From positions 35,714,001-35,778,000 of the forward strand of contig CM119372.1 in the NCBI GenBank assembly GCA_051294905.1: DNA of 64,000 nt, given 5' to 3'. The DNA is from Botryllus schlosseri (taxonomy: Eukaryota). Made by a program: the position numbers and the translations under genes. Positions within the stretch are counted from its first letter, which is position 1; every line of letters starts with the position of its first letter. Positions 4,817 to 33,381 of this stretch are shown here, piece by piece. A model generated the notes under the pieces. It was not told where the DNA came from, ran no database searches, and saw only the letters and a program-made list of their open reading frames with translations.

Positions 4817-5229
4817 GGCTTACGATACGTCCTCTCTTAAGAGGATTTGACCTCTTTTTTAACTTTTCTGAAAGTCTCCTCGGAGGACGCCTAAATCTCT
4901 TCTTTCTTGAGAATATGTCCTCTTTTTCAGAATTTTGGTTAAATGTACGTGGAAATTGGACTGATATAAAGGAAATCAGCGGCCAAGTAACGGTCGAACG
5001 GGCGTCTCGGGACTTGAGAGCCAGAAAACTGACCATTTCTTAGTCAGCCAGCGAAAACCTCATGGGAAGCCGGTAATACAGGACTTGAGTCGGAACGTTG
5101 ACCGTTTTTAGTCAACCGATCACACAGTCGAAAAATATTCACCGTTCTTCCAGGAGTTTATTCCGGTATTGTAAGTCTGGAAATTTTGAAAAAGTGTCCT
5201 CTTTTCAGATTTCCAAAATAAGGTGAGCC
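4817..5229. mobile_element. MITE with GGC...GCC termini flanked by TA
   Basis: TA|GGCTTAC ... GTGAGCC|TA short imperfect TIR; repeated internal GTCCTCT motifs. Confidence 0.5.
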
Positions 5230-5509
5230 TAAGTATCGGTGAACAACATACTTTTATTTCCTTATTCGGATATCACGTATTCGTGAATTAATGAATTTTG
5301 GAGACGATGTTGGTCATTGCATAGTATCTATTTCGACGGGTACGCAGTTTGAAAGTGTATGATAATTCTCGCCTACACTATCTTACAAACCACGCCTCTC
5401 TACACCTCGAAGATGATTCGAAGATGACATCAAATTTTAACGTTAGGGACTCGTACAAGGAGTTACCCTATAACTCCATCGACGTGTCGATGTGCCAGAT
5501 GGATTAGAT

Positions 5510-8616: not shown

Positions 8617-9360
8617 TATGAAGGGTGCGAAACTCGATTGGATCTAATGTCGATGTTTGACGCTTGGGCCGCGAGATGAAATAAAGCTCAAATTTGGGTC
8701 ACGGTTCTAAAAGTGTAAGAATGCTGATATATTAGATACACAAAAATAAATTAAAATACAGTCGGTTCGACTTCATTTCCTTTCACATTTGACAGAATTC
8801 AGCGGAGCAACGTTGATCGAAATAAGGGTAAAGAAATCAATTTTTCGTTACATATGGTCATGCGTAAATTCAGACAAGATGATTGAAAACAATTTTATAT
8901 TGCTTATTTAATGAATTTCAGATGCGCTAACCTGCAATAATTGGCACTAACTGCATAAATCGCTCAAGGAGACAATTAAGCGGACAATCATCCGACTTAA
9001 CCGGAGGTGATTGATCTGTAGTCGCACTATAGCAGTGGTCGGGAACCTATGGCTCGCGAGCCATATATGGCTCTTTTGGGTATAAGATATGGCTCTTTGC
9101 CAAATATTTATTTTTGCACTGAATTGATCAATATTGCAGCGATTTGTTGGTTATATTTTCATCACGACCAAAATAATTATTCTCGTGGCAGTATAAACGT
9201 GTCTGTGAGAAGTAAAGACAATGCCGTCTTCAGGTTTAGGGGCCCGGACCCCCTCTCTTCAAAATCATCAAATTTAAGTGACTGTCACGCCGGCGGCCAA
9301 TATCACCCGCGAATTCTATGCACAGGAATCGAAATCTTGAATGGTGCGATACGTTGATTA

Positions 9361-13900: not shown

Positions 13901-14533
13901 AAATTGTGGCCTTCAAACCATTTGCTTACAATCCCCTGTCAAATGCGATAGCTATTTCATTTTCGATGTCGGCTAACAGCTGATCATTCGATCAGCCTAT
14001 TCCTCGATCTATTTTACTCAAAGTTCGGTGTTCGTCTGTTTGTATTGATTTTGACAGTGTACCATGCCGGAATGGGTTATGAGATTGCGAATGCTACTTC
14101 TCGATGATTTCATGTAACAGTATGCTAAGTTTACGGCTTTCATTCATGTATTTATTGATTAATATATTTTCCAACGGCGATTTGGCAGCAGACAGTAAGC
14201 CGTATGTGTTGCGTCACAATCTCCAGTTTCAAGGCCAAAATGTACTATGTTGTTCCGAGACCGAAGTTCCGAGGCTGCTGTCCTTAGTTCTTCAAAGACC
14301 ATTCAAATTGATGTTCTGGATTCAATATGACAGGCCCAATCTATGAGATAACAATTGCGTATGTGTCCGAAGTCGTTGACCTTTGCAGTTAGGCTTACGC
14401 AATCTCTCGAGTTCTAGTCATTGGAATTAGTCTGGTCAAGTCAAGTGCGAACATGAATCGTATTGAATCTTTGCTCCGTACGTAGGCTAGTTTACGCAGT
14501 TGCCTTTAGAGCGAAAATTAAAGGTCTAGAAGA

Positions 14534-14761: not shown

Positions 14762-15070
14762 TTTCGGACGGCATATCGATTTGCGTAATCTCTAACTCTA
14801 CCATGAAATCATAACGCATGCTACTAAGGATGACCTGATAATTGATTCGTGGCATAGGGACGATTCTTAGTTCACGTACATTATGTAAAATAATCCTTTG
14901 ATTAAAAAAAAATGAATAAAACATTTGGGATCACATGAACTATACGCCGTCATTTCCCGTACACAGGGAACACGAGTAAAACAATGTATCCCCATGTGCA
15001 TTAATGATCCCCTATGTACGGCCTTTTCTTCAGATGCCTTTTTCTTTTTGCACTCTCTCGAATGTCATTG

Positions 15071-15289
15071 AAAAAGTGCTGACTCAGCGTATTTCTAGTT
15101 ACGAGGTTTGAGTTTTTTCCGTCTACTCCCATTATAGAGAAATTCGCACATCTCCATAATGTACACTTTTCTTGCCTTATAATCTCAGCAGGTATGGGCC
15201 CTTTGTATTCCCTCTATTTTCCAATAAAAAGTGCTGACTCAGCGTATTTCTAGTTACGAGGTTTGAGTTTTTCCCATCTACGCCCATTA
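15071..15289. repeat. Two ~64-bp direct repeats (15071-15134, 15226-15289) containing TGCTGACTCAGC
   Basis: Near-identical AAAAAGTGCTGACTCAGCGTATTTCTAGTTACGAGGTTTGAGTTTTT copies. Confidence 0.85.
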
Positions 15290-15477
15290 CATAAAATACT
15301 TCACTTGATATCTATTACAAACACTGGCTCGTCGGGATTATTTTTGTGTGCCTTATACATATCACAAAGTCACTCAACGATTTACCAATATTACAGCATC
15401 ACGCTTCACTACTTCACTATAGAAAATAGGTATATCCTGTATTTACAACTAATTTTTAAGAACCTAATCTCTAACCT

Positions 15478-15720
15478 TTAAACTCTGTCATTCTCCGTTG
15501 TGTTTCGTATTACTCTTATCGCCATCCATTGCTCTGCTCCGTTTCGTCTCCTCGTGTTCCTCATGCGACTTAAGGTACTACGTCGACGACACTTTATATA
15601 ACTTACCCATGTTACAATCAACGGAGCAATCAACCCTATTACCGCTACTAATTCAGTCACGTTTTCTAGGGTAGGTATCAACTTCGCACCTTCCATAATC
15701 ATCCTATCGATCAAGAACAA
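15478..15720 (-). CDS. Small putative membrane protein with a basic tail
   Basis: LVAVIGLIAPLIVTWVSYI followed by KCRRR and an Arg-rich tail; directly downstream of the protease ORF. Confidence 0.4.
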   Translation of the reverse strand: MFLIDRMIMEGAKLIPTLENVTELVAVIGLIAPLIVTWVSYIKCRRRSTLSRMRNTRRRNGAEQWMAIRVIRNTTENDRV

Positions 15721-15749
15721 TCCTCATACCTTATATTCACCTTCCATCA

Positions 15750-18113
15750 TCACCAGTCGTGCAGCCGTTGAGTATAGTTGTAGTCAACGAATTCTGTGGC
15801 TATCTTCTCCACGGTGGTTCTTGATAGTCGGGGACATTCAGGTACGGATGTTCCCACCCCTGGGTTTTTCTGCCCAGACAGTGGCAATGCGTCAACCGTT
15901 GTTGACGTCAAGGTAATGGTCATCAGCTCGACACTACTCGTGAATACGTCGTCCTTGTCGTCTCCTGATGAATACAAAATGGACGTTTCGGCACCTACCT
16001 TATTGCCGTCATCCATAGTTAGGTAGTGCGTTCCGATGCCGCTCCCGCCGTCATCCGTGAAGTTCTGCAGAGCGTCCGTAGTGGTAACCGGATGCACTGA
16101 CGTTTCTCTAGGCATTTCCACCATGATTTTCGTCATTCCGTCGGTTTGGTTTCGCGCGCGACGAGTTTGCAACTGTTGCTTCCCATGAGTCGCATCAGTT
16201 GGTTTGACATTTTCATTTTGTCCCCTTATTTTAACCATCGATCTTAATCGTTTAAAGGTTTTCGTCAGTTTTAGTTTTACAAAGCATGTCCACAGGTTTA
16301 ACAACAGTAACCGGTGTGGCCTCTTCCAGTTTTCTTTCTTCAAATCTAAGAGGGAGAGTACTTCTCTTCCTTGGGCTTCTTTCAATGCCTTCGCCTGGCC
16401 CTCCCCCTTCAAATTACAAGGTCCAGATACAAATGGTTTGGTCGAAGGGTCCTTAAGTTCGATGCCGCATCTGTATGCCATGGCGTGTGAGTAGCCGAGG
16501 TGACCACGCAGGTCCTCGAGTTCGGACGCAAACGGCGCGTAGAAGGCTTTCCAGACTTCATCAGAAATAATGGTATTTTCTGGAGTCGTCAGGTCAGGAG
16601 GTTTGTACGGGAGTTTGGCCAGCGCTACATATTGTACACAAATATCTTCAAGTTCCGTCATGACGCTTGAGTTAGTGTCTTTATGCAAAACATACGCAGT
16701 AACTGGTCCAGTCATGGGCTGGTGTGAGCCTCGTGATGATCGAGGTTTTGGTGTTGGTGGAGAGAGGGCGAGGTCCCTCGATGTAGGCCTCTGATCTCGG
16801 CGCGTGCCCGCGCCTACCGTCACGCCGATGGACTCCTTTTCCGCCGGGGACCCTATTTCTGGGGTGACGTGCATCTTAAAATCCCCAGACTCCTTGTCGG
16901 ACATGACTGGGCGTGTATCCGGTTGACCGGCAATAGCTGCTTTGTTTGAACCTTCTGGGAAAGTAATCATAACTGTGGCTGTCGTCATGCATCTATGGGC
17001 CGAATCATTACAGTTATTCGGACAAGTGCATCCACGAGAGCATTTAGGACCAGTTTTCTCGTGCAGGTCCTTATTTACGCCAGCGGACATTCCACGCTCG
17101 ACGTCAGCTGTAGTTGTCGCCATGCATCTATGGGCCGAAGTTCTGCAGTTCTTCGGACAAGTGCATCCGCGAGAGCTTTTGGGACCAGTTTTCTCGTGCA
17201 GGTCTGTATTTACGCCAGCGTGCATTCCACGCTCGACGTCAGCTGTAGTGGTCGCCATGCATCTATGGGCCGGATTTTTACATTTATCCGGACAAGTGCA
17301 TCCGCGAGAGTTTTTGGGACCAGTTTTCTCGTGCAGGTCCTTATCTACGCCAGCGGGCATTCCGCGCTCGACGTCTTCATTAACGGTGTCAGCAGGCATT
17401 CCTGCCTCGACACCAACAGTTTTCCATAGGTTCTGGGTGACGTTAGTTGTGATTTTCAACTCGTCGTTCGCACCAGTGGTGATTTCCATTTTGGTACTCG
17501 CGCCAGCGGTAATTTTCCGCTTCACGCTATCTTGGTTTGCAGCATCCATCAACCCATCGTCGATTGCAGTGTAGCTAATACCGCTTTCGACTTCGGTTCC
17601 CTTCCATTGATTGCACGGGTTCTCATCATGTAGTGTTACTAAAGACAACTCTCCATTTGCGTTAGACGGGGTTTTCAATTCCGTAACTATGCTTGGTAAT
17701 TGTTGGACTCGATCAATCCATTTTAAGCCAATTACATTGAGAGGGACTCCTTTCCCGGTCGCAAATGGAACCGGTAGTTCGTCAAAATCAATTACAACCA
17801 ATGAGTCAACGTGGGAGGAGCCCCCTATACCACGTAACTTCATATCTGAAGGTTGCCGTTCCTCCCAGCTCTTTGGATACATGGCTTTTACGATATTTTT
17901 CATAATTAGATTAGGTAGGCTTCCCGTGTCGGCCAAAAATGTCGTACCGGTTGTTGAATCAGTCAAGTACAAAAGCCGACCGCCGAATAACTCCGTGAAG
18001 TCTGGCTGTAGAGGGTTATCCGGTGTATTAAGGGGTAGAGAAGCGTTATGAACAATCTTTGCGGGTTGGGGTAATAAATTTTCTGGGAGCTGATTTACCG
18101 GATCAATCAGCAC
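15750..18113 (-). CDS. pol: Retropepsin-type protease / internally deleted pol, probably expressed by -1 frameshift from gag
   Basis: FLADTGS active site, LRGIGG flap, VIGLKWI motif; IELKDPSTKPF resembles the segment preceding RT, but no YxDD, RNase H or integrase motifs follow. Confidence 0.8.
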   Translation of the reverse strand: MLIDPVNQLPENLLPQPAKIVHNASLPLNTPDNPLQPDFTELFGGRLLYLTDSTTGTTFLADTGSLPNLIMKNIVKAMYPKSWEERQPSDMKLRGIGGSSHVDSLVVIDFDELPVPFATGKGVPLNVIGLKWIDRVQQLPSIVTELKTPSNANGELSLVTLHDENPCNQWKGTEVESGISYTAIDDGLMDAANQDSVKRKITAGASTKMEITTGANDELKITTNVTQNLWKTVGVEAGMPADTVNEDVERGMPAGVDKDLHEKTGPKNSRGCTCPDKCKNPAHRCMATTTADVERGMHAGVNTDLHEKTGPKSSRGCTCPKNCRTSAHRCMATTTADVERGMSAGVNKDLHEKTGPKCSRGCTCPNNCNDSAHRCMTTATVMITFPEGSNKAAIAGQPDTRPVMSDKESGDFKMHVTPEIGSPAEKESIGVTVGAGTRRDQRPTSRDLALSPPTPKPRSSRGSHQPMTGPVTAYVLHKDTNSSVMTELEDICVQYVALAKLPYKPPDLTTPENTIISDEVWKAFYAPFASELEDLRGHLGYSHAMAYRCGIELKDPSTKPFVSGPCNLKGEGQAKALKEAQGREVLSLLDLKKENWKRPHRLLLLNLWTCFVKLKLTKTFKRLRSMVKIRGQNENVKPTDATHGKQQLQTRRARNQTDGMTKIMVEMPRETSVHPVTTTDALQNFTDDGGSGIGTHYLTMDDGNKVGAETSILYSSGDDKDDVFTSSVELMTITLTSTTVDALPLSGQKNPGVGTSVPECPRLSRTTVEKIATEFVDYNYTQRLHDW
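16975..17375 (-). repeat. Three in-frame 135-bp (45-aa) Cys/His repeats
   Basis: CATGCATCTATGGGCC recurs at 16986, 17121 and 17256; peptide motif CTCPxxCxxxAHRC. Confidence 0.95.
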
Positions 18114-18128
18114 CCCCAGTCGTTTTTT
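18083..18128 (-). promoter_or_regulatory. Programmed -1 ribosomal frameshift signal (A AAA AAC plus stem-loop)
   Basis: Gag frame reads TCA AAA AAC GAC TGG GGG TGC TGA; the -1 frame is the protease ORF; downstream GGGGTGCTGATT can pair with AATCAGCTCCC. Confidence 0.85.
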
Positions 18129-20968
18129 GAGAGTCTCAACCCTTGTTCAAGTTCCTCATCCGTCCAGTGTGAGGCGTCATAGTGACGTGGCGGGCGTCGA
18201 AATAGCGGTTCCGTCCAGGCCACTTGGCTATTGCTTTGATTTGGCTGTGCAGACGGTCCCTGAGGACCCCATTGATCCTTATCATGCCAGTGAGTTCTAT
18301 CTCTATTTTTTGGCCTAGTGTCATAATAGGCTTCGCACAAGGCAGTTCTCTGTGTCAGCGAGGGAGAGCCTTGGGTGGCAAGGTATCGGTCGAGGTCCGG
18401 GACCGTCAGTATGTTATTCCTCGCAAGCAAAGGCCCCCAATCACGTTCAGCGGACTCCTTAACGCGAGTAGGTATTGGTTGTACTCGCTTGCGAACTACC
18501 CATCCCAAGGTATCATTCTTGGTAAGCACCTCCTCATTTAGCCGAAGTATGAATTTTGCCACGCAATTTCGGGATTGGTGTCCCGGGGCCTTACAGCAAA
18601 AACATACGGATAAGGACTGCCCCTGAGGAGGTTTCAGATATAAGCCTAGAGGGGCGAAGATGTTTGGGTTCCCAAGAAAATTATATCTCTCCCCTTGGCT
18701 CTCCGCGATGCGGAGGGCTTCCTGACTGCTTGATGGTGTGATTTCCTGGCCACCCCTGCCGATCCCAGAGTCCTGCGTCTTCGTCAGTTGAGGTGTCCGG
18801 TTCCAAGTACTTGGTCCCTGACTAGGTTGAGAAGACCTGGAGTTTCGCGTTGGTGTAACGTTGAGTCCATTCGATGCGTTGCGCACGTTTTGTGGTCGGG
18901 CAGGTTTAGCCCTGGGAGTCGGACCACGTCTGCCGAACCCATTGCCACTCATAACGTTGGTAAAAAAACGGTTGGTCTTGGTGCCGCGAGGAGGGTTACG
19001 TCGTGGCTGTGAAGCTTGCCCGACACCGACGAGCTGCCGTGGCCACATTTCCCCAGACGGTTCGGGTGGTGTCCCTCCGATCATGTGTAGAGGTGGTTTA
19101 GGTGAGGATGGTTGCACCATCAGAGGTGGTGTTATAATCGGTGGGGGAGGGGTGTTCAGTCGTCCATCTTCACTCCCGTGAGTAGGGTAACTGTGCATCA
19201 TGGGTCCTGCAGGCTGAACATAATATATGTGCACAGGTGGTAGGGGTGACATTGTCTTTCTGACCTCCCGAGAGGTGGAACGTACCTCTTGTTCATCCAA
19301 GAACTCAGAATTCCAGTACAGCTGTAAATCCTCCGCCACCTCTTGCCAAGACCTGCTATCCCATCCCCGCATCAGCAGCCTAAGTGCTTCTGGTAATCGT
19401 TGTCTTAGGTTGCGGAAGAGTCGCAGCCCATCCGGATTCTCTTTGATTTCAGCCTCCATATCTATCTCTAGTTGTTTTAGGGCACTATTCAACAGCGGAA
19501 GAGGTTCGTCTTCCCACTGATAATTCCTCCGGAAATCGTTGATGACCTTTTCATTGTTAACCAAGCCTTGCGGGTTGGATAGCGACAATGATTTCATGAC
19601 CGAGACCCATTTTGCATTTCCCGAGTTGGTATTGAAGAAATTCCCCAGCTGATTAGCTTGTTTGAGGCGACCTGCACTCCGCAACTTCTTCTGCATGGCA
19701 TTGGCCAGGATTATATCTGTATCGGTGTCGCCCTCGCCGTGTCGTATTCGTCTCATCGTATTAGCCATCCACTTTAGAAGGGGCATATCCCCTGGGTCCA
19801 TCATTAGCTGTAGCATCTCCTTTTCCGACTGGAACCTTTCGGGCGTAGTCAACACCGGGTTCACGGCATCATTCCGTGGTTGACCTCGCGGAAGTCTCGA
19901 CCTTCCTTCGCTTTCTCTTGGGGTAGATGCGTATCGAGGTAATCTGAGGTATTCAGAGATGTTTGACATATTCTCTTCGGGTTCGGTTGGGTTGGGCTGA
20001 CCAGAGTCTCGCTGAAGCGTCCGTGTGGTCTCCCGAATGGCCTCCCGTGCCGCCGCTATTTTCCTACCCAATCTGTCCAATTGGGCATCAGTATCTTCCC
20101 CCGAGTCGTCAGGGTCCTCGCCTCCGTCTTGTCGGTAGTTCGTTCTCCCTTCTTGAAAGGTAACGCGCCTCGTTGCACTGCCGGCCTCACCTTGTGTCCT
20201 GGCCCGGGTTCTCTCGGCGGTTCGTTGAACGTCGGTCCATGCCCCGAGCCGCTTTCGAGCGTGTGCATAGCCGTCGTCTGAATCGGTGACGGTCCCGTTT
20301 TCACTTAGCCGGAATAGACTGGGTGTATCGACTAGGTTCCCCCTTCGTCGTTCGGGGCGTGTCCCATTCCGAACCGGTAAACATGGAGTCGTTCCTGGAC
20401 GAGAATCAGATAGTGAATTCGGCTTGGAACCTGGCAACGCAGGGTAGACTGCCGTCACGGTATGGCAATCCAGGCCCTTCTGAACTGTAAGCGTGGGCAG
20501 GGGCGCTGTTGCCCTGGACGATTGCCCAACGAGCGGATCATACGCCGGTGGAGGTACTGTAGACATTACGGACAGAGAGGAAGGTGGCGGTGGTTTATCC
20601 CCAACCACTTGTGCATGGGCTTTGCCCAGCTCAAATTCTGATTTCAAGATCTCACTGAGGACGTCAGTGGAGACTTTCCCGCTGACCTTCGAAGTGGCAT
20701 CGCATACTGCTTTGAGGTGGACTTGAGCTCGCCTGCCTTCTTTCTTGGCCTTTTCCAGCCCTTTTTTTGTCTCGGGCAGAGTTGATTTGACTTCTTTTAG
20801 TACCTTTGTTTGATCAGCCACGTCTTTTGCCAGCTGTCTTTCTTGTTGTCTGACGTCTTCATGGCGTTTTTGCGTTGCTTTCAGCAGCTTGATACCCTGC
20901 TCGAGCTCGTCAGCCGCCTCTGACAGCTTCTTTTTCTTCTTCCTAAAAAATTTTAGCATTCTTCGCAT
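18107..20968 (-). CDS. gag: Gag-like polyprotein, 953 aa
   Basis: Uninterrupted ORF; CX2CX4HX4C knuckle (CFCCKAPGHQSRNC); probable helical capsid-like middle region; N-terminal RKKKKK and coiled coil; overlaps the protease ORF. Confidence 0.85.
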   Translation of the reverse strand: MRRMLKFFRKKKKKLSEAADELEQGIKLLKATQKRHEDVRQQERQLAKDVADQTKVLKEVKSTLPETKKGLEKAKKEGRRAQVHLKAVCDATSKVSGKVSTDVLSEILKSEFELGKAHAQVVGDKPPPPSSLSVMSTVPPPAYDPLVGQSSRATAPLPTLTVQKGLDCHTVTAVYPALPGSKPNSLSDSRPGTTPCLPVRNGTRPERRRGNLVDTPSLFRLSENGTVTDSDDGYAHARKRLGAWTDVQRTAERTRARTQGEAGSATRRVTFQEGRTNYRQDGGEDPDDSGEDTDAQLDRLGRKIAAAREAIRETTRTLQRDSGQPNPTEPEENMSNISEYLRLPRYASTPRESEGRSRLPRGQPRNDAVNPVLTTPERFQSEKEMLQLMMDPGDMPLLKWMANTMRRIRHGEGDTDTDIILANAMQKKLRSAGRLKQANQLGNFFNTNSGNAKWVSVMKSLSLSNPQGLVNNEKVINDFRRNYQWEDEPLPLLNSALKQLEIDMEAEIKENPDGLRLFRNLRQRLPEALRLLMRGWDSRSWQEVAEDLQLYWNSEFLDEQEVRSTSREVRKTMSPLPPVHIYYVQPAGPMMHSYPTHGSEDGRLNTPPPPIITPPLMVQPSSPKPPLHMIGGTPPEPSGEMWPRQLVGVGQASQPRRNPPRGTKTNRFFTNVMSGNGFGRRGPTPRAKPARPQNVRNASNGLNVTPTRNSRSSQPSQGPSTWNRTPQLTKTQDSGIGRGGQEITPSSSQEALRIAESQGERYNFLGNPNIFAPLGLYLKPPQGQSLSVCFCCKAPGHQSRNCVAKFILRLNEEVLTKNDTLGWVVRKRVQPIPTRVKESAERDWGPLLARNNILTVPDLDRYLATQGSPSLTQRTALCEAYYDTRPKNRDRTHWHDKDQWGPQGPSAQPNQSNSQVAWTEPLFRRPPRHYDASHWTDEELEQGLRLSKNDWGC

Positions 20969-21012
20969 AATTTATGTAAATTTTGATTGTCTGTATATTA
21001 GTTCCGTGCCTT

Positions 21013-21462
21013 TTACTGGCCAGGGTAAGTACCGTTCTGAGGTAAATTACTCACGGACGTGGTTGTGTTGTCCCCGATCACTCGTCCTTGCGTCGTGGGT
21101 ACGGAATGTCTTATAAAGATAACCGGGTCAGTTCTGTTGGTGATTACCACAGCAAATCCGTTATGTGGGACATGTAGTAGTTCGGTCGTTGTAGTGACGT
21201 CGTCAGAGAGACCTTCAGGAGTCTTCGTAGGATAGAATACCGGCGCAAGGTGTGCGTAGATCGATGCCAATATTATAAGCAGAGATATAACAGAAGTGAC
21301 TACCGTCACACTGAGCACAATTCTCACGAGGGTCGTCCTTGAGAATATCAAAAGGTCAATGTTTTTACACCGGAAGTATCCCAGTGGTGCCTCCATTTGT
21401 GTCTTTATAGTGCAGCTCCATAACGATTGGTATGCGAGTCGTCTACACTTGGTTCGGATCAC
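21013..21462 (-). CDS. Putative small membrane protein upstream of gag
   Basis: Long hydrophobic run LVRIVLSVTVVTSVISLLIILASIYA, Thr-rich tail with NRT/NTT/NGT sequons; start codon uncertain. Confidence 0.4.
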   Translation of the reverse strand: MIRTKCRRLAYQSLWSCTIKTQMEAPLGYFRCKNIDLLIFSRTTLVRIVLSVTVVTSVISLLIILASIYAHLAPVFYPTKTPEGLSDDVTTTTELLHVPHNGFAVVITNRTDPVIFIRHSVPTTQGRVIGDNTTTSVSNLPQNGTYPGQ

Positions 21463-21780
21463 TTCACGGCGAAGAATTGAACTTTTATTGCACTGTACTG
21501 TCCAGACGACGTCCGTGGACGTTGATTGAAGTAGCAGTAGTTGCAGTAGTGGTATCTTTCAGCATCAGACAATGACCCTTAGGTCCAGAGTTCTAAACTA
21601 GCCTTATATAACGTGTAATTAGGCCTTAATACAACCAAATACTCCAATCATTATCATGCAGACAGAATGAGGTATCTAAGCAAAACTCGGTTAATATTGG
21701 CATATAGAATATCCATCAAATATAACACAAGATAAAGCTTAAACCTATTCATTTTCATGCACGATTAAATGTATTTTAAA

Positions 21781-22007
21781 TACTCCAAGGTTTGTTTTCG
21801 CATATAAACTATGCGACGGCCTTTCCTGCCGAAGTGGTATCTTTCAGGGTTTGTTAACACATGATTAATGTGACGGCCTTTCCTGCCGAAAAATAGCTCA
21901 TAGGTTTGTTTACACATATAATGCATGTGACGGCCTGTCCTGCCGTAAAGCAGCTCCAAGGTTAGTTTACACATATAATGCATGTGACGGCCTGTCCTGC
22001 CGTAAAG
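21781..22007. repeat. Four ~57-bp tandem units, each with two hairpins (putative structured RNA)
   Basis: CGCAT..ATGCG versus CACAT..ATGTG compensatory stem, then A, then invariant CGGC-CTKTCCT-GCCG hairpin. Confidence 0.85.
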
Positions 22008-23729
22008 TTCATTTATGACATATCGCTACATTGTACACCATTCAATCACAATAGTCATGCACGAACTAATGTTTTCTGTTATATCTCTGGGTTCCTTTAG
22101 TATCGGTGTGTATAAGCTTTTTATTCATTCGTATGTACCGTGTCTCACAAACAATAGATTTGATTTACCACGAATCTTTAACTCTACACATGCTCCAATA
22201 AGGTAGAGGTTCCTAGCTTAGTCTAAGGGTGCGTAGCTAGTTATAACGCATAACTCCGGGAGGTTCCAACATTAAGGACTTTGTATCGTTGACCCGATTA
22301 ACATGGCCATATGCCAATTAAAGTGCACTTGTTGATACTACCCTTAACAAAGGTGTTGCTTATTCGAACACTGTTAGATACCCAGGGTCCCTTTCACGGG
22401 TTTCTGGAGAAATCCCTAACCATTTCTAATCCTAAACTTCTATCCCGCTAGGGTGAAGGGTCCCGACACTAATATAGGGCGTGGTCGGTGTATAACGCCT
22501 AATTAAAGCCTACAGGCGTAGTACTCGCTATAATGTTACTGTAGTAACAACCAATTATTCACACAATAAATGTTCACTAACCCATACACATATCTACGAC
22601 ATAAAATGTTAGCGCCATTTTAAAGCAACCTGATGGTATTGATCAAAGATACAGTAAAGGCAGTGCTTAAACAAAATGGCGTCACTATACAATATTACAT
22701 CAAAGTAACCCTCACATGAAAATACCAATGTCCTGTTATGACTCGCGCGTCTCGTCATCATGCCGCAGATTGATTCATGTCGTTGTTCGTCAACCGCATC
22801 TTCTCCGATCTCCGTCATGGTATGTTCAGGACATATTTGGCAACCGTTCGTTGGGGTACTTCGTCTCGTGCATCTATTTCGAAACCGATTTCTTCAACTC
22901 CCTTGCTGATGAAACGATTCTTCTGCGTATCTCTTCTTGATTTTGCAGCCATCTTGATCGTCTCTTCCCACCGTTATCTTTAACGTGAATTTTTGCGGGC
23001 TCTGTTTGGCACGTTCCAACCTTTGGTTCACTGGTCCTTGCTGAGCAGTGATTTTTAGTGCCGGATTTCTTCTTATTTCTTCTATTTCACTTCATTAAGC
23101 CCTAGATTCTATCGAGGGAAGCAGTTTTTCGGGACTGTCGAATAGTAATTTTATAGTTGGTACCACCAAGTCGTTTTTTAATGCCAATAGAATGTCCAGT
23201 CCATCTCGATATTCTCATGCCATTTCATCACTCCACCCAGTCTTATTATGGTCTTATTGAGAGCAAGTCATTAAGTTCTCGGCATGTTTTCCAGACGCTC
23301 TTCTTGTCATACAAGTTTTAGATACACTCGATGCGCACAGAGAGAACATTAAAACACACACATATCAGAATTTCGCGTCATTTGCTATCGTAACGTTGTC
23401 ACAATACAATAATTCGCATGCACGTACTGATCACGGTGCCATAAGTGCACTCGTAAGACACATCCATTTCGTGAAACGAATGTGCAAACAAGGCGGGTCT
23501 TATTCTAATGTCATACTCAATCATCGACACATCAGTTTCGAAAAACGAATGTGTGGACAAGTTCAACCATGGGTTACTTTTCTAAGGTCTTTATTTTAGC
23601 AGTACTGGCTTGAGGTATTCCTAATGTTATAGGCCTATTATTTCCGGTTATAATGTTCATTTTTATTCAACTTATGTAGTTCCATAGCCATTCACGACGT
23701 AGCTACGTTGTAAATCGCTATGGTAGTGA

Positions 23730-24654
23730 CCTAAACGTTTTGTAAAATCTGTCCGTCTTACCCAGGATCTAAAATCAAGGTACGGAGCTGTATCCATTGT
23801 GGATATCGTCCTTAACATTTGGGAAAATATGTCCGTCTTATCCAAGATCTAGAATCAAGGTACGGATCTATATCCATTGTGGATATGGTCCTTAATATTT
23901 TGGAAAGTCTGTCCGTCTTATCCAAGATCTAAAATCAAGGTACGGATCTATATCCATTGAGGATATGGTCCTTAACATTTTGGAAAATCTGTCCGTCTTA
24001 TCCAAGATCTAGAATCAAGGTACGGATCTATATCCATTGTGGATATGGTCCTTAACATTTTGGAAAATGTGTCCGTCTTATCCAAGATCTAGAATCAAGG
24101 TACGGATCTGTAATAATTTCAATAGCAGCCCTAAACTTTTGGAAAATCTGTCCGTCTTATCCAGGATCTAGCATCAAGGTACGGATATATCAGATTTAGT
24201 AAGCCTTAACGTTTTGGAATATTTGTCGGTCTTCTCCAGGGTCTAGCACCGAGGTACCGATGACTATTGATTACAATAGTAGCCTTAAACTTTTGGAATA
24301 TATTTCGGTCTTCTCCAGGGTCTACCACCGAGGTACCGATCTAGCAATTTTAGTAACCCTAAACGTTTTGGAACATATGTCGGTCTTCTCCTGGTCTACC
24401 ACCGAGGTACCGATGACTATTGATTACAATAGTAGCCCTAAACTTTTGGAATATATTTCGGTCTTCTCCAGGGTCTACCACCGAGGTACCGATGTATATC
24501 CATCGTTAATTCTAGTTGCCCTAATCGTTTTGGAACATATGTCGGTCTTCTCCAGGGTCTAGCACCGAGGTACCGATATATATTAATTATAGTGGCCCTA
24601 ATCGTTTTGGAAAATCTGTCCGTCTTATCCAGGATCTAACATCAAGGTACGGAT
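23730..24654. repeat. Twelve ~75-83-bp units: ~56-bp conserved core plus variable, often hairpin-forming spacer (putative structured RNA array)
   Basis: Two core variants with paired substitutions: TCCGT..ACGGA versus TCGGT..ACCGA, and GAT-N5-ATC versus GGT-N5-ACC. Confidence 0.92.
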
Positions 24655-24919
24655 GTTCATTTCTGATTTCGAAATGCGTCGCGAGGTGTCGGTTCAGATC
24701 GCTACCTCTCGTAAAGGTCCGAGCGCAAATCAAACATCGATGTGTCTTCAAATTGTAGTGTGTCATTAAATGACCGGATAGAGTTGATTTGCAGTTGAAC
24801 TGTTTAGCGCAAACCCAGCATTGATTTGCTTCGACCTTGTAGTGACTTGCCAGATGTCCGTCGAGTCGATATCTCCGCGAGAACTGTTCGTCGCATAACT
24901 GGCACCGATAACTGTCCAT
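24587..24919 (-). CDS. Intronless three-finger C2H2 zinc-finger protein
   Basis: Three CX2CX3FX5LX2HX3H fingers; ATG start; minus-strand TATAAA at about 25051-25056; C-terminus runs into the repeat array. Confidence 0.85.
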   Translation of the reverse strand: MDSYRCQLCDEQFSRRYRLDGHLASHYKVEANQCWVCAKQFNCKSTLSGHLMTHYNLKTHRCLICARTFTRGSDLNRHLATHFEIRNEHPYLDVRSWIRRTDFPKRLGPL

Positions 24920-25702
24920 CTCTGCGCTTAATATTTTGAGGTAGAGACACTAGTAGATTTCTGATTTTCGACAGTTCCTCTGTTGCTACGGCACTCCGTG
25001 TGCCCCCAGTTCAGACTGGGCAGACTCATTTATTGGCCGTTCATCATCAGTTTATATCTTATTTTTTCCGGAAGAGAGTGACACTTGACGGCTAATTGTG
25101 TGTGACTCCTTTGCACAATGACACATGCTTGTATATTCATGATGTGGTTCTATCTCATTTCAAGTATCAATGGCATTCATCAGCAACCCCTAGAAGTTTT
25201 CAGAAAGCCACAATATTACCCTCGATACTTCCATTCACTATTCACCATTCTGCACCTCAATAGCCAGATATTTAATTGCAAACATTGTCTCCTTCTGACT
25301 ATAGACTAATCCACAAATGGATTCCTATTCATCTTTTATTCAGGGCACTTGCATGAATGACACTTCGACTAGTTGCGCCCTTTGTGAGCTTTATCACCCC
25401 CCCTGTCAATCAACCAGCACTAAAGAATGCTTGATATAGGTGTCAGAGAAGCGTCGACAATAATAACCAGTTTGTATCAATATTCGAATGCCCCAGCCGA
25501 AAAGAAATCAACTTTGTCAATGCCTAACAACTGAGGCCTTGATTTCTATTTTTACATGGGGCGGTTGGAGGCGAACGGCCAGGAATTGTCAAAACCTCCT
25601 TCTTCTGAAACGCTAAAACCCGACCTTCCAAAATACACAAACTGGACACTAACGCTCAGCTACAAATCAACGAGCCCCAGTAACAATCTGTAGCATGTAG
25701 CT

Positions 25703-26082
25703 TAGGGTCGTCAAGTTCAATCGAAGTCGCGGGCCAGACTCGGACATTTAGATCACTCACTGGCCAGACCAGTCAAATGATTACACAATATTACCAACTC
25801 CACAATATGTTCACTCTTGCACACCCTCCGAATCGGTCGTCAGTGTTTGCGATCCGCCCCCGACGATGACTAGAAATCACAACTCCGCCGTCAGGCGGGC
25901 CCAATGCGGTCCAAATAAGCATACTCGATATTCGCTACCCCGAAGGAAATTTCATCAGAAGCATTTTTCACCACAAACCCGATAAAGGTGCCAGTCAAAA
26001 CACGTACCTTCTTCAACCCGAAACCATAATAGCCTGACGGGTCGGGTGAAACAGTTGGCCAGTTGCATGCTCGATACCCCTA
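25703..26082. mobile_element. Degenerate hAT MITE
   Basis: TAGGG...CCCTA termini; TSD ATGTAGCT/AGGTAGCT (one mismatch); GCGGGCC subterminal motifs. Confidence 0.6.
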
Positions 26083-29000
26083 AGGTAGCTATAGGGCTAC
26101 AGTTACTGACGCATTCATTAGCAGTTATACGTGTGCGTGAGCGATATAATACATTTTAGCATCTATATTCACGTTCTATAATCGCCTTTTTAATTTAAGT
26201 TGTATTGCCAATCAATTTGCCTCCAGGACGGCTTAGCTATAAGAAATGACTCCGACCGATCAGGCGATCGCTCTTACTCTGAGAATTCAACCTGACGTGG
26301 TCCTTGTCCCGGCTCGGGGTCTGATCATACCCTGCTTTTGAGTAAATATCATATAAATGTAATTAAGACCATGTTCGCGTGGATTTTCATAACTGTGTTA
26401 TCATTAATTACTCAATAATTTTTGGAGAACGTAGTGAATATTGCTTTTCAATACAGGAATCAGAATCATAATGGCTTAATATCCCGCGTAGGTTATATTT
26501 GTCGCGAGTATAACTGATTATAATGTAAAGAAGTGACGCTGAATGCCTTTTCATCAACGCGCACCAGAATAGAAGTATCGTTTCCAAGAAAATGCCGCGT
26601 TGGCAATATAACTAGAGTGTTACTCTCAAGTAAGCAGTTCGTGCTATGAGAACTTCACATTTCCGTTACTACTTTTTGTCATGTGCACAGCGCTAAGGTA
26701 TACATTTGCAAGCAAGGTGAGATTTAGTACCATGCGTTTCTGTACCGGCTTAAACCAAATTTAGCCATACCTTTTCGACGGAGCCATACACTTCAGCTTG
26801 CGGTCTATAGCAACGTATTTATTTTATAAAATGTATTAGATTCCAGATTGGCTAAAGTTAGTGAGCTGTACTAGAGCCTGCGCGGATTGTGTGCACAGAT
26901 TGAATCACACCAAAATAATATTATGACTTAATAGGGCAGAGTATTTCTAAGATTCGCTATGCTACGGCAGTTTGAAGCTAATTTTTATCATCCCAGATCG
27001 TTATGCCGACTTTGCCTACAATTATCGCTCAAGGAAATTTCACCCTACTACTGCAACCATCGCCGGATGCACTCCAGCTACGACGCAGGCCAGTAAAGTT
27101 GCGCTACTCTTTTCGAATTTACACTAAACTTGGTTATAACTACTCTATGCAGATGAATTTTCGATCAGAAAATTTCCTCTTCTGTCGCAATTATCGGGGA
27201 ATGCACCTCAGCTACGATGCAGGCCAGTCATGTTGCGCTACACGTTTGTATAATGACTCTACGCAGACATACACTCCAGATTTGAAAGGTTTGCGGCATG
27301 TCTGCAATTTTGTCATCAACGCAACCCTGCCGGCCGATTTTACGGCCTAATGAGATTGATCACTTCTAAGTACTCCGTACAATATACTGAAGCTGATTCC
27401 GGCAAATTAACGGTCCTTATTTAGATGTACAAATTCGATCTCATCATTAGGAACGTGGATTCGAAACACTATCACGATTTGACGATCAAATCCACTTTCT
27501 CGTTATACAAGTTAAGGTGCATTAATCGCATTGATGAGGGCCGCAAGTTGAGCCTGAATTAATCTCTGAATCACTTCTGTGTTTTATATTCTCGAAGCGC
27601 GAAGTTAGATAGTGTTTAATTGTGTGCGCCTACTAGTTGGAACATGTTGCAATGCCCGTGACATAAATCCAACTATGCTTCGCGAACATAAGTCGAGAAC
27701 TGCAGCAATGCACTCGAAACCGGGTCTTAAGATAACAACCAATAGTCGCGATGTGAGTTACTCTATATTAACAAAAACACATTGTGCCGGCGATAAGGGG
27801 CCTGACCGGTGGGACAGGCCCTTATACCATCATAATTTTCATATGTCCCTTGTTTTCTAGAATTGTCGCGCCGCAACAAGTTCCAGCACGCTGCATTTTC
27901 CCCCGTAAGTCCATTGTATTTTCAATTTTTGTGTTGCCAGCCTGCATTACGCTGTGACAAAATGTAAATCAATGTGCGAGCATGGCCATTCTTCGTCACC
28001 ATGCGGTGCAAGTAACGCGATGGCGGATTGGTAATGGTTTTGTTGCAGGCCCAGACTTGACGGATGCTTATTGGGTAGATATAGAATAAATTGTGGTCCC
28101 AACCTTATTATTGCCTCGGCGAATTTTGTATAATAGGCCTATGTTACGGGTACGTAAGGCATTGCGTATAATGCTATTATATTTATTGACTCCATTCAGA
28201 AATAGACCATTTTTTTTATGTGTATGTGGGATTTCCAACCATACATTCATAACATGCCCAGGATGGGACTCGCACGTCAATAGCGGCTTATCGTAAAAAC
28301 CGAAGGCCCTGTAAATAATCCATTTAAACCAGGGTGTGGCATGTTGTGATGTCAATTTTTAACTATATTAGGGAACGTTACATGCGGGACTTGTACCTTC
28401 ACGTATTCGACACTGCCACATATCTTTCAAAGGATAGAAAGCTCAAAATCCACTACAAAACCGTTTCAAAATCGTTAGGCGACCCATCAAACTCAATACG
28501 GCAACACTTTCACAAGCGAGCGTGCGTTATAAGATATGCTGCCACGCCACACCACCTTTCCACAAAGAGGGAATGTGTCCCGTTGACGATCCGCGACTAA
28601 TATCGAGATTCCAACACATGCGCGATCTGTTGGAGAATCACTCGAATCAGTACTGATCGGCTGATAAAAATCAAAAAAGGACCGAGTTCAACCAGTTCAA
28701 ACGTCAAAACTTTCAGAAGGACCTGTGACTCGGAACCTCATCTGTTGGTAGATTGACGAACACAAAATAAGCCTCAAATTGTTCTGAGGCTCAGTAATTC
28801 TCCAACATACGTCCCACTTAGACTTGAATATCATATCAATCCTTGATAAATCCTACATATTTTACATCACATTTTCACAATTTGTGTGGAATATGCGCAG
28901 TCCGAATCTAAAATGGGGCCGACTCAACACTGATTATTCCAGATTTGGTTTTTCGAAAACAACGTACATATATATTTTTATATTTTTAATCTGCCAAGAG

Positions 29001-29344
29001 CCATATTTTTCGGTCGTTCATACGAAAGATCCAGAAGTGGGTGGTGTTATAAGTCTGTAGCTACGGAGAATTAACGAATAACATCGGCCCTGTGTAAATG
29101 AACACAGCGGTCGACAATCGCCATGAATACTGCAAAAGCAAAATCAACTATTCTATGCTCTTTCCGCGGCCTTTCTACAATTCACCTATTCAAATCCCAG
29201 TATAGCACATTGGTTTCCGGTTCTTTTTGTGGAAAACGGACACCTCGCAACCCTATAACTTACATCCTATTCAATTGTCAATTCGTACGCTCGATCATGA
29301 ATAATACTTATGAACAGGCCGTGTTGACCTGTCATATACTAGGA

Positions 29345-30227
29345 CAGTGGTTCCCAACCTTCTTCATATCGTTACCCCCAAGAAGAAAATGACGGATTGC
29401 AATCACCCCTTTTCAATAAATCACAAATTACAGCTTGCACTTAATTAAATCGAAGAACAGCACAGAGATGACGTCATAATGTACACTGAAAGTTACACTG
29501 TTAAAAATATCAAGTCCATGCGAAAGCTGATGCTGTTTTCGTGTTATCCAGTGGTCAAATAGAAACAAAGGGTATGATAATAATTGACAGCATCCCTCAT
29601 GTAATTGTCAATCGCAAAATCATTCAGTTTGATAGAAAACCCTCCTTCATAGCAATAAGTTGAAGGAAATTCAATCACAAGGTTCAATGCCATACGAAGA
29701 TTGGTTATTCATTTTTGAAGGAGAACCCAGAAGGTTCGAAAATCTTCCCCTCGTTTCTTTAAAGGCATGTTGATGATTTCAAACTTAATTTTACAGACTA
29801 GACTAGACCAGCACTACACTTTTCTATACTAACAACTATATTTCTACGATATTGTTAACGCATTATAGGTGTAAAGCTAAACTTAGACGCCCCTTGTTGT
29901 CTTTCAATTTGTCAGCCTGCGCAACAATATATGATCCGCCCTACCGCGAAATAAATTAGCATTACCTAGCACTATACTGAACTACATTCGGCCCTGTTAT
30001 TCGTAATCACTAATGGTTACTATGATCTCACAGCAGGCATGGTGAACTAAGTGAAACGAAATATATAGGTCCACAAGCTCGCAAAGACATATGTTAGCCT
30101 ACATTCATTTTTACGTTTGGAAATACTTTGAACAGTGCAGCGTTATAAGTATAAAAATTTGAATTACCCCCCAGAAATTGGCAAATTACCCCTTTGGGGG
30201 TAATTACCCGCTGGTTAAGAACCACTG
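29345..30227. mobile_element. hAT MITE
   Basis: CAGTGGTTCCCAACC/GGTTAAGAACCACTG; TSD TACTAGGA/TGCCAGGA (two mismatches); TTACCCCC subterminal motifs. Confidence 0.75.
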
Positions 30228-32974
30228 TGCCAGGAGCTCAAATATAGCTTATCATTTATTTTTTATTGCCATTTTTCATATCTATTCCTTAACCCCTCTG
30301 GCATCACCAAGGACTCCTATATTCACGGCGTAGAATGCTATATAGTGCATTTATTAGCCTATATCAAACGAAAGTCGCTAAACATGCAGTGTCTGCTTTG
30401 TGTATGATACGCTCCCATGTTTAATACGCACCCTTAAAATAGCATGCAAATTTTAGAAAGGCCTGCACCCATGTATATTACTTGTTCTGCGTCTCAATGG
30501 GCGAGTAGTTGCGATTTTAGGGTGCGCTATCATTGCGTATTTGCGATGCAGTTATTAAACGATCATTACTCAATCAGTGGAATATTCTTTGAACGATAGC
30601 AGATAGCAGCCAAAGCTCGCAAGGCCGGCAGAGCGATAGTTTCGGCTATCGACACTATATCTTGTACACGAGGTCCATGACAAGTGTGATAGGTCAGGCC
30701 AACGATTATGTCGTGCGTACCAGGCCTGCCGATGATGCGACCGATCGCGAAAGCATTTGTATCCCGCGTACATGGCATACTATATGTGCGATTGGGGGGG
30801 CCTGTCGTTGACGTGATGAATTGGCGATTACTGCCGCGTGCGCGCTGCGATCAGTCATAAAGAATCCGATAATTTAACTGCCTCAGTGTTTTGAGTTGGA
30901 CATCTTCTTAGTATACTTTACATAATAGCATCTTAGCTCATACAACGAAATGGTTTTTAGCTCAGAATTACCCTTTGCTGACCGCTATCAATTTTTTTAG
31001 CATACTCTCCACGCAAGGTCCGCTGCAACAATTCTATTCGCCTTGGGCACCTCAGAGCAAGATCGGGAAAGATCGGGAGCCACCTCAAGACGTACACCAA
31101 TCGTCCATTGATCCATACCACAGGTTTGTCTTACACAATTAGTGTTTAGTATTTGATATTTTCCTGGCAATGGCGCACAACATTAGATTGAAGACATAAT
31201 ATTTCAAAAGACACCCCCCATTAAAAAAAAACGCTGTTTAAAATACGTTTTGAACAAGGTGTTTCAAAATAACGCCTGATCCAAATGCAATCCCAACGGC
31301 AACGCCGATCAGTTACCACGGCAACAGGCGGGATAGCCAGTAGTGTAAAAATTGATCTGATTTTAATTGGCAATTTGACACTACCCATGACGCGGAAACA
31401 CGCATATGTGCGTGTTTACGCCCATATTTCCTTGCATTCACCATTCATTGCATTCATCTTCAGGGACCCTCAATGGTGTTCAATTTCTATAAAGTCTTGC
31501 GGTTCTATAGCGTTGAAATTCTATAGCTTTACAATTCTCACGGGTCGCTGTTTTTTTCCATTTGTACTATCGTCGTCATGTGTGGCATATGTAACTAATT
31601 TCGCCTAGTGCATGGTATTCGTCTAATAGATATCAGGTCCCAAACCCTAAATACAAAATACTTAAAACGCTTGACGCCTGTTAGTTAGCGAGTCCGCAAC
31701 ATCGCGCAAATGCCAACCAACCATCATTCTACCCCCCTCAACTAAACTGCATTGCGCGCATATCCACCAAATGTATATATATATATTTTTTTTCTTTTTG
31801 GCCCATAATAGTCTCGTAAACTATAGGTCGCGAAATAGGTTAGTATGTTTGTGTATATCCGCGAATTGACGTCATTCCTGCGCAAGGTGCACATCTACCC
31901 TGTGCGATCAAGTCATAATTAACAATTATCGGGAAATGGAGCAATACAGCTCCGACGTTGTTATCATAAGCAAACAATTGTCGCGATGTTAGATCCGGAA
32001 CCTCATTGTGATGTACGCCGGTAGGGGAATTCGATTAGAGATAGGGCTTCGGAGCTGGAGTCAGTTCTTTAGGGGTAGCGACGGCTTCGACGTATTTCAT
32101 AAGATGCCATTGTATATGTAATGACCATATCTGCTGAGTTAACATAATTCAACAGCAGGCCTTTTCCCCCCTTTGGCGCTATCGTTCCCGACTAACCATG
32201 TTCTTGGGGATTCAACAGCAAGGCAGTCGTATGTTCCATATTCAACTTTCATACATTAGTGCTGAACCTCGGTATGCGAATTTCGCCTGTGAATATTGTG
32301 GATATTCTGTATACCCGCAATTTCATCATCAGCACAACCTTATTGGCCAATTGTAACGTTAACGAGTACAGTGCCAGTGTTAAAACGCCGCATCAGAATT
32401 TTAATGCTGTATACTGTACAGCATTGGCACGAAGCAAAGTGGGTTCCAGTGCAACTATGACGTTAGCGACAACTGACAAGTACTCATTATATCGCCACAA
32501 GCCGGCACAGCGGCACCCATGTACCGTTGCCGCATCCGATTTTACTGACGGCCAACAGACTCCAGATTACTATAGATAACCAACTTACGGGTAAATTAAT
32601 CAAACTACTCAGAATTGCTTCACATGCCGCATGCGGTCTGCTGGCCTTATGCTCGACATCGCTATCCTAGGCCATCATTGTTCGAGAAATTGACAAGAAT
32701 AAGAAAAGTCGCGGTATGTCATGCTATAGCGTCTCAAAGTTTCCAAATTGCAACTGTGTTGATGACAGCATAATCTTTGCTCAGATTATAGAAGAACCTA
32801 CAAAAGAGCATGGCCCAAAGTACAGTCCTTCAACTGCTGCTGAAGTTTTGATGAAGCCCTCTTCATTCAGGCAGTTGCTGACTGATGATATCCACAAGAA
32901 AGACTGGATTCCCGTCATTATCCACACTTACTTTTTTTTTTTTTACGTGTTCCCGCACCAAATAAACCTGATTC

Positions 32975-33381
32975 AAATTTACTGGTCTCAGGAGCTTAAA
33001 ACTGCTGCAAGGGACCAGACGAGTATATTGATATTACAGTAGATTCCTGTTACCTTTAGTTACGGAAATTTTCCGTAAAACTTCCTACGGTCAGCATATG
33101 TAAAATCATATTACGGGGAGAGTTATTTCGAATTTACTGGTCTCATCAGCGTAAAACTGCTGCACTGGACCAGACCACTAACTTGGTATTACAGCCGTTT
33201 TCCGTTACATCAGGTAACGGGAATTTTTCCGTAAAAACTTTAACAGTCAATCTTTGTAAAAAATAAATTACGGTCAATAATATTTTATGGGAAAATATTT
33301 TTCAAATTCACCGGTCTCAGAGTCGTAAAACTGCTGCCAAGACCAGACCAGTAATTTGGCATAGAATATTCTCAACAGTGT
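32975..33381. repeat. Three degenerate ~155-175-bp tandem units, probably MITE-derived
   Basis: AATTTACTGGTCTCA...TAAAACTGCTGC...GACCAGAC recurs at about 32976, 33131 and 33305. Confidence 0.65.

Follow-up and report, generated by a model that had tools for sequence, protein, structure and literature searches.

A 57-nt module that is repeated in a twelve-unit tandem array at 23730..24654 of a 64,000-nt stretch of the Botryllus schlosseri genome is probably a selected, cis-acting stem-loop, iterated within a giant composite transposon. The stretch, which we call the window and whose own numbering is used throughout, covers positions 35,714,001 to 35,778,000 of the forward strand of contig CM119372.1 (GCA_051294905.1). 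The array does not stand alone but belongs, as a tandem repeat, to the interior of a large mobile element, and within that element the module is more conserved than either the flanks or the coding DNA.

When the majority 57-nt modules of the main and the diverged subfamily of this element are compared, 2 of the 57 positions differ (96.5% identity), whereas outside the module the flanks are 71-81% identical and the gag and pol DNA 76-83%. About 45 of the 57 positions are at least 90% conserved. Because the module is constant while the spacers within one array are unrelated, this pattern favours constraint on the module over plain satellite homogenisation, and sequence comparison thus suggests that the module is probably under purifying selection.

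Architecture of the array

Tandem Repeats Finder reports overlapping arrays with periods of 80, 77 and 154 at 23730-24654/24656. Parsing of the units shows three parts in each: a linker of 22 nt, which is conserved, the core stem-loop of 35 nt, and a spacer that varies and is about 6-27 nt long, with core-to-core spacings of 75-84 nt.

23730..24654, no strand assigned: tandem array of 12 units (Tandem Repeats Finder, unit parsing, covariance model)
23752..23786, no strand assigned: core 1, A type, TCCGT/ACGGA and GAT/ATC (unit parsing, pair counts)
Starts at 23832, 23912, 23992, 24072, 24151 and 24619, no strand assigned: other A-type cores (unit parsing)
Starts at 24226, 24305, 24380, 24458 and 24542, no strand assigned: B-type cores, TCGGT/ACCGA and GGT/ACC (unit parsing)
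23682..23723, no strand assigned: imperfect palindrome of about 42 nt directly left of the array (self-inverted BLAST match)

A preliminary description, made from the letters of this DNA, had reported twelve units with two core variants that differ at paired positions, and Tandem Repeats Finder and unit parsing show this to be accurate. Units 1-6 and 12 are of the A type (TCCGT...ACGGA, GAT-N5-ATC, CTT/AAG) and units 7-11 of the B type (TCGGT...ACCGA, GGT-N5-ACC, CTT/GAG); unit 9 carries a 1-nt deletion. The spacer hairpins it listed (ATATCCA-TTG-TGGATAT and CTATTG-ATTA-CAATAG) and the CYTAA linker are likewise present in window units.

The linker of the module reads CCYTAA...TTTTGGAAA... and is followed by the 35-nt stem-loop. 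Within any one array the first unit always has an upstream linker and the last core has no downstream linker, and for this reason the conserved module is taken as linker plus core. The spacers of a single array fall into at least 8 unrelated types, some of them only 6 nt long, while the module remains constant. A run of TTTT occurs on both strands of every unit, and TATA-like sequence in some of the spacers. The palindrome left of the array recurs in most other copies as a self-inverted match at flank positions 553-594.

Covariation in the core stems

Units were collected genome-wide with a Hamming scan that yielded 224 units from 39 of 40 stretches and that misses units bearing indels, such as window unit 9. 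We aligned the 133 distinct full units out of 182, numbered the core 1-35, and compared the structure proposed in the preliminary description with 500 shuffles, which ignore the relatedness of the units, and with slides of the partner columns. Paired cells amounted to 96.1% versus 91.4% in the shuffles, and cells changed on both sides numbered 95 versus 28 +/- 3.6; none of the 500 shuffles reached either value. When the 3' partners were slid by 1-3 columns, both-side changes dropped to 3-36. Six units with a 1-nt shift were kept in the covariation and wobble counts, where they inflate the 'other' class, and were excluded from the counts of stem breaks, module comparison and closing pairs.

The core stem-loop first noticed in the window is borne out by P1 (1-5/31-35) and P3 (15-17/23-25), with changes on both sides at five pairs across the genome-wide units:

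Pair 3-33: both-side changes in 43 of 133 rows
Pair 16-24: both-side changes in 41 of 133 rows
Pair 4-32: both-side changes in 5 of 133 rows
Pair 17-23: both-side changes in 3 of 133 rows
Pair 2-34: both-side changes in 2 of 133 rows

Across the genome P1 occurs as TCCGT/ACGGA, TCGGT/ACCGA, TAGGT/ACCTA and TCGAT/ATCGA, and P3 as GAT/ATC, GGT/ACC and GGC/GCC. There are at least five compensated stem types, present in several loci, and P1 and P3 types are also found in mixed combinations, so the covariation signal does not depend on a single split. The number of independent compensatory events is small, about five. Loop and bulge bases of the module are nearly invariant.

The array lies in a giant Merlin-like element

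The array occurs in at least 43 places on many chromosomes of the 495-Mb genome (40 of 103 candidates were scored). The same left flank adjoins it in 39 of 39 loci examined, at 71-99% identity overall and 71-81% in the diverged loci. In all 39 the array has a fixed position inside a dispersed element and unit number is variable, with 0-16 recognisable units per locus. A covariance model, run over the window and 55 kb of a full copy, gave 23 matches, all within arrays; in the window itself it matched the array only. Scans for the module pattern returned 0 matches in viral contigs and 0 in metagenome contigs.

The ends of the element are common to copies on five chromosomes, and its family ranges from 23 to 42 kb in size. 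In the window copy all recognisable open reading frames (ORFs) of the element lie on the minus strand:

14928..37844, minus strand: host mobile element, 22,917 bp, non-autonomous (boundaries common to copies on other chromosomes)
14920..14927, no strand assigned: left 8-bp target-site duplication AACATTTG, with the right copy at 37845-37852
14928..14951, no strand assigned: left imperfect terminal inverted repeat with GG start, partner at 37821-37844
18107..20968, minus strand: Gag-like ORF, 953 aa, with CCHC knuckle (diverged homologue matches zf-CCHC; weak Atlas leads to retrotransposon gag)
15750..18113, minus strand: truncated pol-like ORF, 787 aa, with protease DTGS motif (comparison with diverged copies)
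21013..21462, minus strand: 149-aa ORF between array and gag, no family match
24587..24919, minus strand: C2H2 zinc-finger ORF fragment of the element (Pfam)

Direct duplications of 8 bp flank five of the five copies read and differ in each. Both ends of the element start with GG, and their inverted match is imperfect, at 16 of 24 positions in the window copy and 17 of 23 in a diverged copy. No direct terminal repeat of the long terminal repeat (LTR) kind was seen in a self-comparison of the element, and its left terminal 825 bp occur once per copy. Hairpins lie near both ends (37800-37825 and 14945-14975): the right one, GCGCCGT-N8-ACGGCGC, at roughly 20 nt from its end of the element, has CCGTCT...TACGG in common with the array core, and the left one is TTCCC-N7-GGGAA.

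Two long diverged copies lie on chromosome 7 (24.8 kb) and chromosome 6 (25.5 kb), and their left part matches the window at 72-83% identity. The layout is the same in both, and its long open frames all use the minus strand of the element; from the right end the order is transposase, 724-aa ORF, 1464-aa ORF, array, gag and Pol:

L059:3735-4751 (-) and L061:4541-5557 (+): DDE_Tnp_IS1595 ORF, 339 aa, adjoining the right end (Pfam E 2e-10)
L059:1460-3631 (-): 724-aa ORF, in both diverged copies
L056:6562-9999 (-) into L059:3-953 (-): 1464-aa ORF, in both diverged copies
L055:1087-5058 (-) and L057:5441-9142 (+): Pol, 1324 or 1234 aa, with protease, RVT_1, RT_RNaseH_2 and C-terminal PTS_2-RNA

The DDE_Tnp_IS1595 match is above the curated cut-off in two of the two long diverged copies. 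The 1464-aa and 724-aa ORFs had no Pfam match and no PDB sequence match, and the Pol of the diverged copies had no integrase (rve) match. Passages of PMC8101967 give 8- or 9-bp target-site duplications and terminal inverted repeats starting 5'-GG as criteria for Merlin transposons, and add that some families contain internal tandem repeats and have very imperfect ends. Because the diverged copies encode a DDE_Tnp_IS1595 transposase, and because the element has 8-bp duplications and imperfect inverted ends starting with GG, we class the host as Merlin/IS1595-like; as read from its predicted genes and ends, it is a giant Merlin-like DNA transposon carrying a retrovirus-like gag-pol. To our knowledge, a DNA transposon and retroelement genes combined in one element are not known from the literature.

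The window family shares its ends, left module and array with the diverged copies, and its right part is unrelated to theirs in sequence. Its pol-like ORF has no reverse transcriptase (RT), RNase H or Tpt1 domain, and no transposase ORF was recognised in the window copy or in its chromosome 8 relative; by its predicted gene content it is a non-autonomous relative of the diverged copies. Tandem repeats of 135 nt (three copies, 16973-17377) in the pol-like ORF encode three 45-aa Cys/His-rich repeats, C-x-C-P-x2-C-x5-H-x-C. These repeats, between protease and RT, may form a zinc-binding nucleic-acid-binding domain.

Positions 14925-24654 of the window align at 97% with the chromosome 8 copy, and from 24654 onward the window aligns to that copy from position 16021. 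We considered and rejected a truncation of the window copy at 24654, since the alignment resumes past an internal deletion of about 15.2 kb and the element runs up to 37844. The zinc-finger ORF abuts the array because of this deletion; the homologous ORF of the chromosome 8 copy lies 15.8 kb past the array. The deletion breakpoint at 24654 is exactly the end of a core stem-loop and unit number varies from 1 to 16 between copies, so the array appears recombination-prone. A position of the array in the leader of an LTR retrotransposon, just after the primer-binding site, was also rejected, because the element has no LTRs and has inverted ends and 8-bp duplications.

A Tpt1 domain at the end of Pol

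At its C-terminus the diverged Pol carries a domain of the RNA 2'-phosphotransferase Tpt1/KptA, which scores 30 bits against PF01885 (cut-off 26). A word-based search for long proteins with a Tpt1-like C-terminus found none, whereas an exhaustive HMMER search with the C-terminal 204 residues did find such proteins, giving 27 representatives at E<=0.001 among 1.84 billion. We scanned 12 of the 27 against Pfam. Among these 12, three proteins of 967-1003 aa combine RVT_1, RT_RNaseH_2 and PTS_2-RNA, at 50% identity or less; two are fragments with RNase H and PTS_2-RNA; five are canonical Tpt1 proteins of 181-228 aa; and the remaining two (192 and 478 aa) also carry PTS_2-RNA. The proteins related to the diverged Pol are P0010, P0017 and P0021. 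As HMMER and Pfam together found further proteins with RVT_1, RT_RNaseH_2 and PTS_2-RNA, RT-RNase H-Tpt1 polyproteins form a family, and a full-text literature search found no published description of such a polyprotein. Tpt1 removes the 2'-phosphate at junctions that arise from ligating 5'-OH and 2',3'-cyclic phosphate ends, and self-cleaving ribozymes leave ends of these kinds.

Proposed role of the module

As a tentative account, which may well prove wrong in its particulars, we favour a module that acts as a folded single strand and is bound sequence-specifically by a protein. The folded strand would most likely be RNA read through the region upstream of gag. The binder would most likely be encoded by the element, with the CCHC knuckle of Gag and the three Cys/His repeats in Pol as candidates, and iteration of the modules would raise avidity in the manner of a multimerised recognition or packaging signal.

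Several observations weigh against this account. The middle helix shows no covariation in any of the registers 6-8/26-28, 6-9/26-29 and 11-12/28-29, all of which are nearly invariant; the CTT/AAG versus CTT/GAG difference that the preliminary description listed among its paired changes is seen in the window units. Variants shared between loci break stems in 6 of 160 cells (3.8%) and private variants in 23 of 424 (5.4%), which is no clear difference. Template-switch mutation is reported to make compensatory pairs in a single event, without selection (PMC8794818). Nor does the fold stand out thermodynamically: RNAalifold does not recover the hairpin (-0.73 kcal/mol), and six modules folded on both strands have z-scores of -0.54 to +0.23 versus shuffled sequences, so that by itself the module is not a stable fold. 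For single cores the folding energy is -5 to -12 kcal/mol in RNA form and -2 to -6 kcal/mol in DNA form.

The strand and expression data belong with these points. The excess of G.T over A.C cells points to the strand that is antisense to the element genes. In the core there are 106 G.T and 27 A.C cells, about 13 of the latter being artefacts of the six units with a 1-nt shift. Pair 8-26 alone contributes 81 of the G.T cells, and when it is left out the counts are 25 and 27. Among distinct variants of the commonest spacer hairpin G.T outnumbers A.C by 18 to 5, and singleton flank substitutions have no strong strand bias (C>T 10, G>A 6). The claim that wobble pairs favour folding of the plus strand therefore holds weakly, at perhaps six to eight events versus two, and its core component vanishes without pair 8-26. 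In four RNA-seq runs labelled as the same species, sampled at about 39 million records (6-13% of each run), no read fell on the array, and the full copy plus 1.5-kb flanks received 32 reads in all; the mapping covered one subfamily at 95% likeness and would lose short RNAs. The sampled runs argue against an abundant long transcript of the mapped subfamily. The read ends phased at about 80 nt that had been anticipated were not seen in these runs, as no reads fell on the array.

Pseudoknot and ribozyme features

The preliminary description had further proposed that TCCARG pairs with TTTGGA in a pseudoknot and that the units resemble the topology of the hepatitis delta virus (HDV) ribozyme. The two segments are complementary and nearly invariant, and among the 133 units no pair of this helix (P2) has changed on both sides, so the pseudoknot gains no backing from covariation. 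Unit 1 does read ACCCAGG and is followed by TTTGGG, but the hint of pairing with the downstream unit fails: among the 13 units that have this T10>C variant and a complete linker downstream, TTTTGGAAA is retained in 9, and TTTGGG compensates in the window's unit alone, 1 of 13. A more compact pseudoknot candidate may exist on the minus strand, where UGGA in the internal loop could pair with UCCA 12 nt downstream in the same module.

The noted absence of P1.1 was correct, as P1.1-like pairs are possible in only 13 of 219 units, and the G.T at the base of P1 is indeed found in most units (9 of 12 in the window, 159 of 219 genome-wide). The alternatives to it are T.T (25) and G.G (24) among the 219, which are mismatches and not pairs. 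L3 is 5 nt long, and 5 nt lie between P3' and P1'. The spacer hairpin, the proposed P4, is dispensable, since some units have a 6-nt spacer. An Rfam search of the window returned no family at gathering scores and, on 23500-24800, no ribozyme at E<=10; models of HDV-like (HDV, CPEB3, drz), hammerhead, twister, pistol, hatchet and hairpin ribozymes had no match, and the only Rfam match was a chance snoU54 of 17 bits outside the array.

Alternative explanations

The modules could instead work at the level of DNA, either as imperfect palindromes that serve as double-stranded protein sites (enhancer-, insulator- or origin-like, in the manner of baculovirus hr regions or the Su(Hw) array of gypsy) or as hairpins that are extruded while the DNA is single-stranded, in transposition or reverse transcription. 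We regard this as unlikely but deserving serious weight. The host moves as DNA, with a transposase, inverted ends and 8-bp duplications, and carries a C2H2 zinc-finger ORF; the array has no RNA reads and is recombinogenic, with its variable unit number and a deletion breakpoint at a core end; G.T and A.C are equal outside pair 8-26 (25 versus 27); and loop bases are conserved like stems, as expected for sequence-specific protein contact. Yet the inverted repeats of the core are not concentric (centres 18 and 20) and the arms are interrupted by 6 nt versus 2 nt, so a bulged hairpin fits better than a symmetric dimer site. A double-stranded site would also need a matching protein change each time for the five pairs that have changed on both sides, and the energy of folding as DNA is only -2 to -6 kcal/mol. 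It is rather improbable, in our estimate, that the array is a neutral minisatellite carried by the transposon, of no function, with its symmetry due to template switching, gene conversion and unequal crossing-over. Tandem repeats are common inside Merlin and other transposons, as passages of PMC8101967 describe and as PMC3879986 and PMC4079207 reportedly show, and template switching is reported to make compensatory changes in one event (PMC8794818). The lack of a thermodynamic signal, the lack of array reads in the sampled RNA-seq and the even spread of private substitutions, 47 in 16 stem positions and 55 in 19 non-stem positions, also suit neutrality. Against it stand the 96.5% identity of the module between subfamilies versus 71-81% in the flanks and 76-83% in coding DNA, the wide differences between spacers beside constant modules where unequal crossing-over would homogenise whole units, and the asymmetric bulges, which are kept while template switching tends towards a perfect palindrome.

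A self-cleaving ribozyme (HDV-like or of a new class), or some other plus-strand processing module giving pieces of about 80 nt, is very doubtful. The segment order does equal the HDV layout (P1, P2, P3, L3, P3', P1', variable hairpin, C-containing linker, P2'), 159 of 219 units have the closing G.T, the wobble evidence leans towards the plus strand, and conservation of at least 90% at about 45 of 57 positions is above the usual need of a protein-binding hairpin. A conserved module with a free spacer is a layout that resembles ribozyme-bearing satellites, and a Tpt1/KptA domain ends the Pol of the element family. Set against this, no Rfam ribozyme family matches at E<=10, P2 lacks covariation with 1 of 13 natural P2 variants compensated, P1.1-like pairs occur in 13 of 219 units, and the alternatives to the closing G.T are mismatches. 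The 5-nt L3 and the 5 nt between P3' and P1' are unlike HDV-like ribozymes; the last core of each array has no downstream P2' partner while the first always has an upstream linker; the plus strand is antisense to every element gene; and there are neither phased read ends nor reads on the array. The ribozyme reading is thus unsupported, and it is kept alive by the element-borne Tpt1 domain, because Tpt1 acts on junctions of ribozyme-type ends. In one form of it, which we consider a long shot, the modules would be sites at which RNA is cut and rejoined, through a self-cleaving fold or as substrates of a host endonuclease, acting with the RT-fused Tpt1. Least of all do we expect an array of small-RNA genes whose units are separately transcribed or processed, for instance by RNA polymerase III with termination at the T4 run. 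Units of about 80 nt with TTTT on both strands, and some TATA-like spacers, would fit such genes, but tRNA- or snRNA-like promoter boxes are lacking, TATA-like spacers are missing from many units, ARAGORN finds no tRNA or tmRNA, Rfam finds no family, and the array has no reads.

Comparison with known systems

Like the minisatellites of Merlin and other transposons described in passages of PMC8101967, this is a short array inside a transposon that spreads with the element and varies in copy number. It differs in that its units are not homogeneous, the 57-nt module being constant and the spacers diverged. It also contains a compensated stem-loop conserved above the coding DNA of the element, a feature not described in those passages of PMC8101967.

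With the HDV-like ribozymes the array has in common the order of candidate helices, a 3-bp P3, a closing G.U in most units, a variable P4 and an RT-encoding element. Such ribozymes of retrotransposons have a 3-bp P3, a G.U closing P1 and a variable P4, and sit singly at the 5' terminus of the sense transcript. Unlike them, the array lacks P1.1 and an Rfam match, has a short L3, an extra 5 nt between P3' and P1' and an unsupported P2, and is internal, multi-copy and antisense to the genes. Hammerhead satellites and retrozymes resemble it in having one conserved structured module per tandem unit, tied to retroelement genes; here there is no hammerhead core or known ribozyme motif, the units, at about 80 nt, are far shorter, and neither circular nor monomeric RNA was seen.

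The gypsy element has an array of 12 Su(Hw) sites, and retroviruses have packaging hairpins upstream of gag. Iterated short conserved sites upstream of gag, about a dozen in number, are thus a common trait, whereas the present element has a DDE transposase and no LTRs or integrase, and the gypsy sites are stemless double-stranded DNA motifs. The hr regions of baculoviruses, which are large DNA viruses, consist of tandem units of about 70 bp, each with a 30-bp imperfect palindrome bound symmetrically by a dimeric activator. Unit size, an imperfect palindrome in each unit and variable copy number are shared with hr; the present array differs in the asymmetry of its palindrome arms and in being hosted by a transposon.

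Other features of the window

Long ORFs are scarce in the window; they include a rhodopsin-type receptor and hAT and RT fragments. Directly beside the giant element lies a separate LTR retrotransposon (1153-14290), with an RVT_1 ORF at 9447-10781 and two direct repeats, each about 1.4 kb long (1153-2552 and 12759-14194), that are 85-89% identical. Also outside the giant element, at 49213-51204, 51544-52984 and 39298-40086, are an ORF with a hAT dimerisation domain, RNase H and integrase fragments of another retroelement, and a rhodopsin-family receptor ORF.

Implications for the element family

Tandem repeats internal to transposons are usually treated as neutral proto-satellites. Here the module is the most conserved part of a 23-42-kb element, and its conservation points to a cis-acting function. 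The setting is unusual as well, a Merlin-type DNA transposon with gag and protease-RT-RNase H-Tpt1 genes and with neither integrase nor LTRs. If the modules are cut-and-rejoin sites, the element RNA would be cut to 5'-OH and 2',3'-cyclic phosphate ends and religated by a pathway of the tRNA-ligase type, perhaps into circles, and Tpt1 would clear the 2'-phosphate from the junction, letting the reverse transcriptase read through. Such a replication step would be new to the literature, and it would operate in a hybrid element that uses a Merlin-type transposase instead of an integrase. More generally, if the modules and Tpt1 are linked, they would represent a new way for a mobile element to handle its RNA; if they are not, the array would still be a clear example from nature of selection acting on a repeated nucleic-acid structure.

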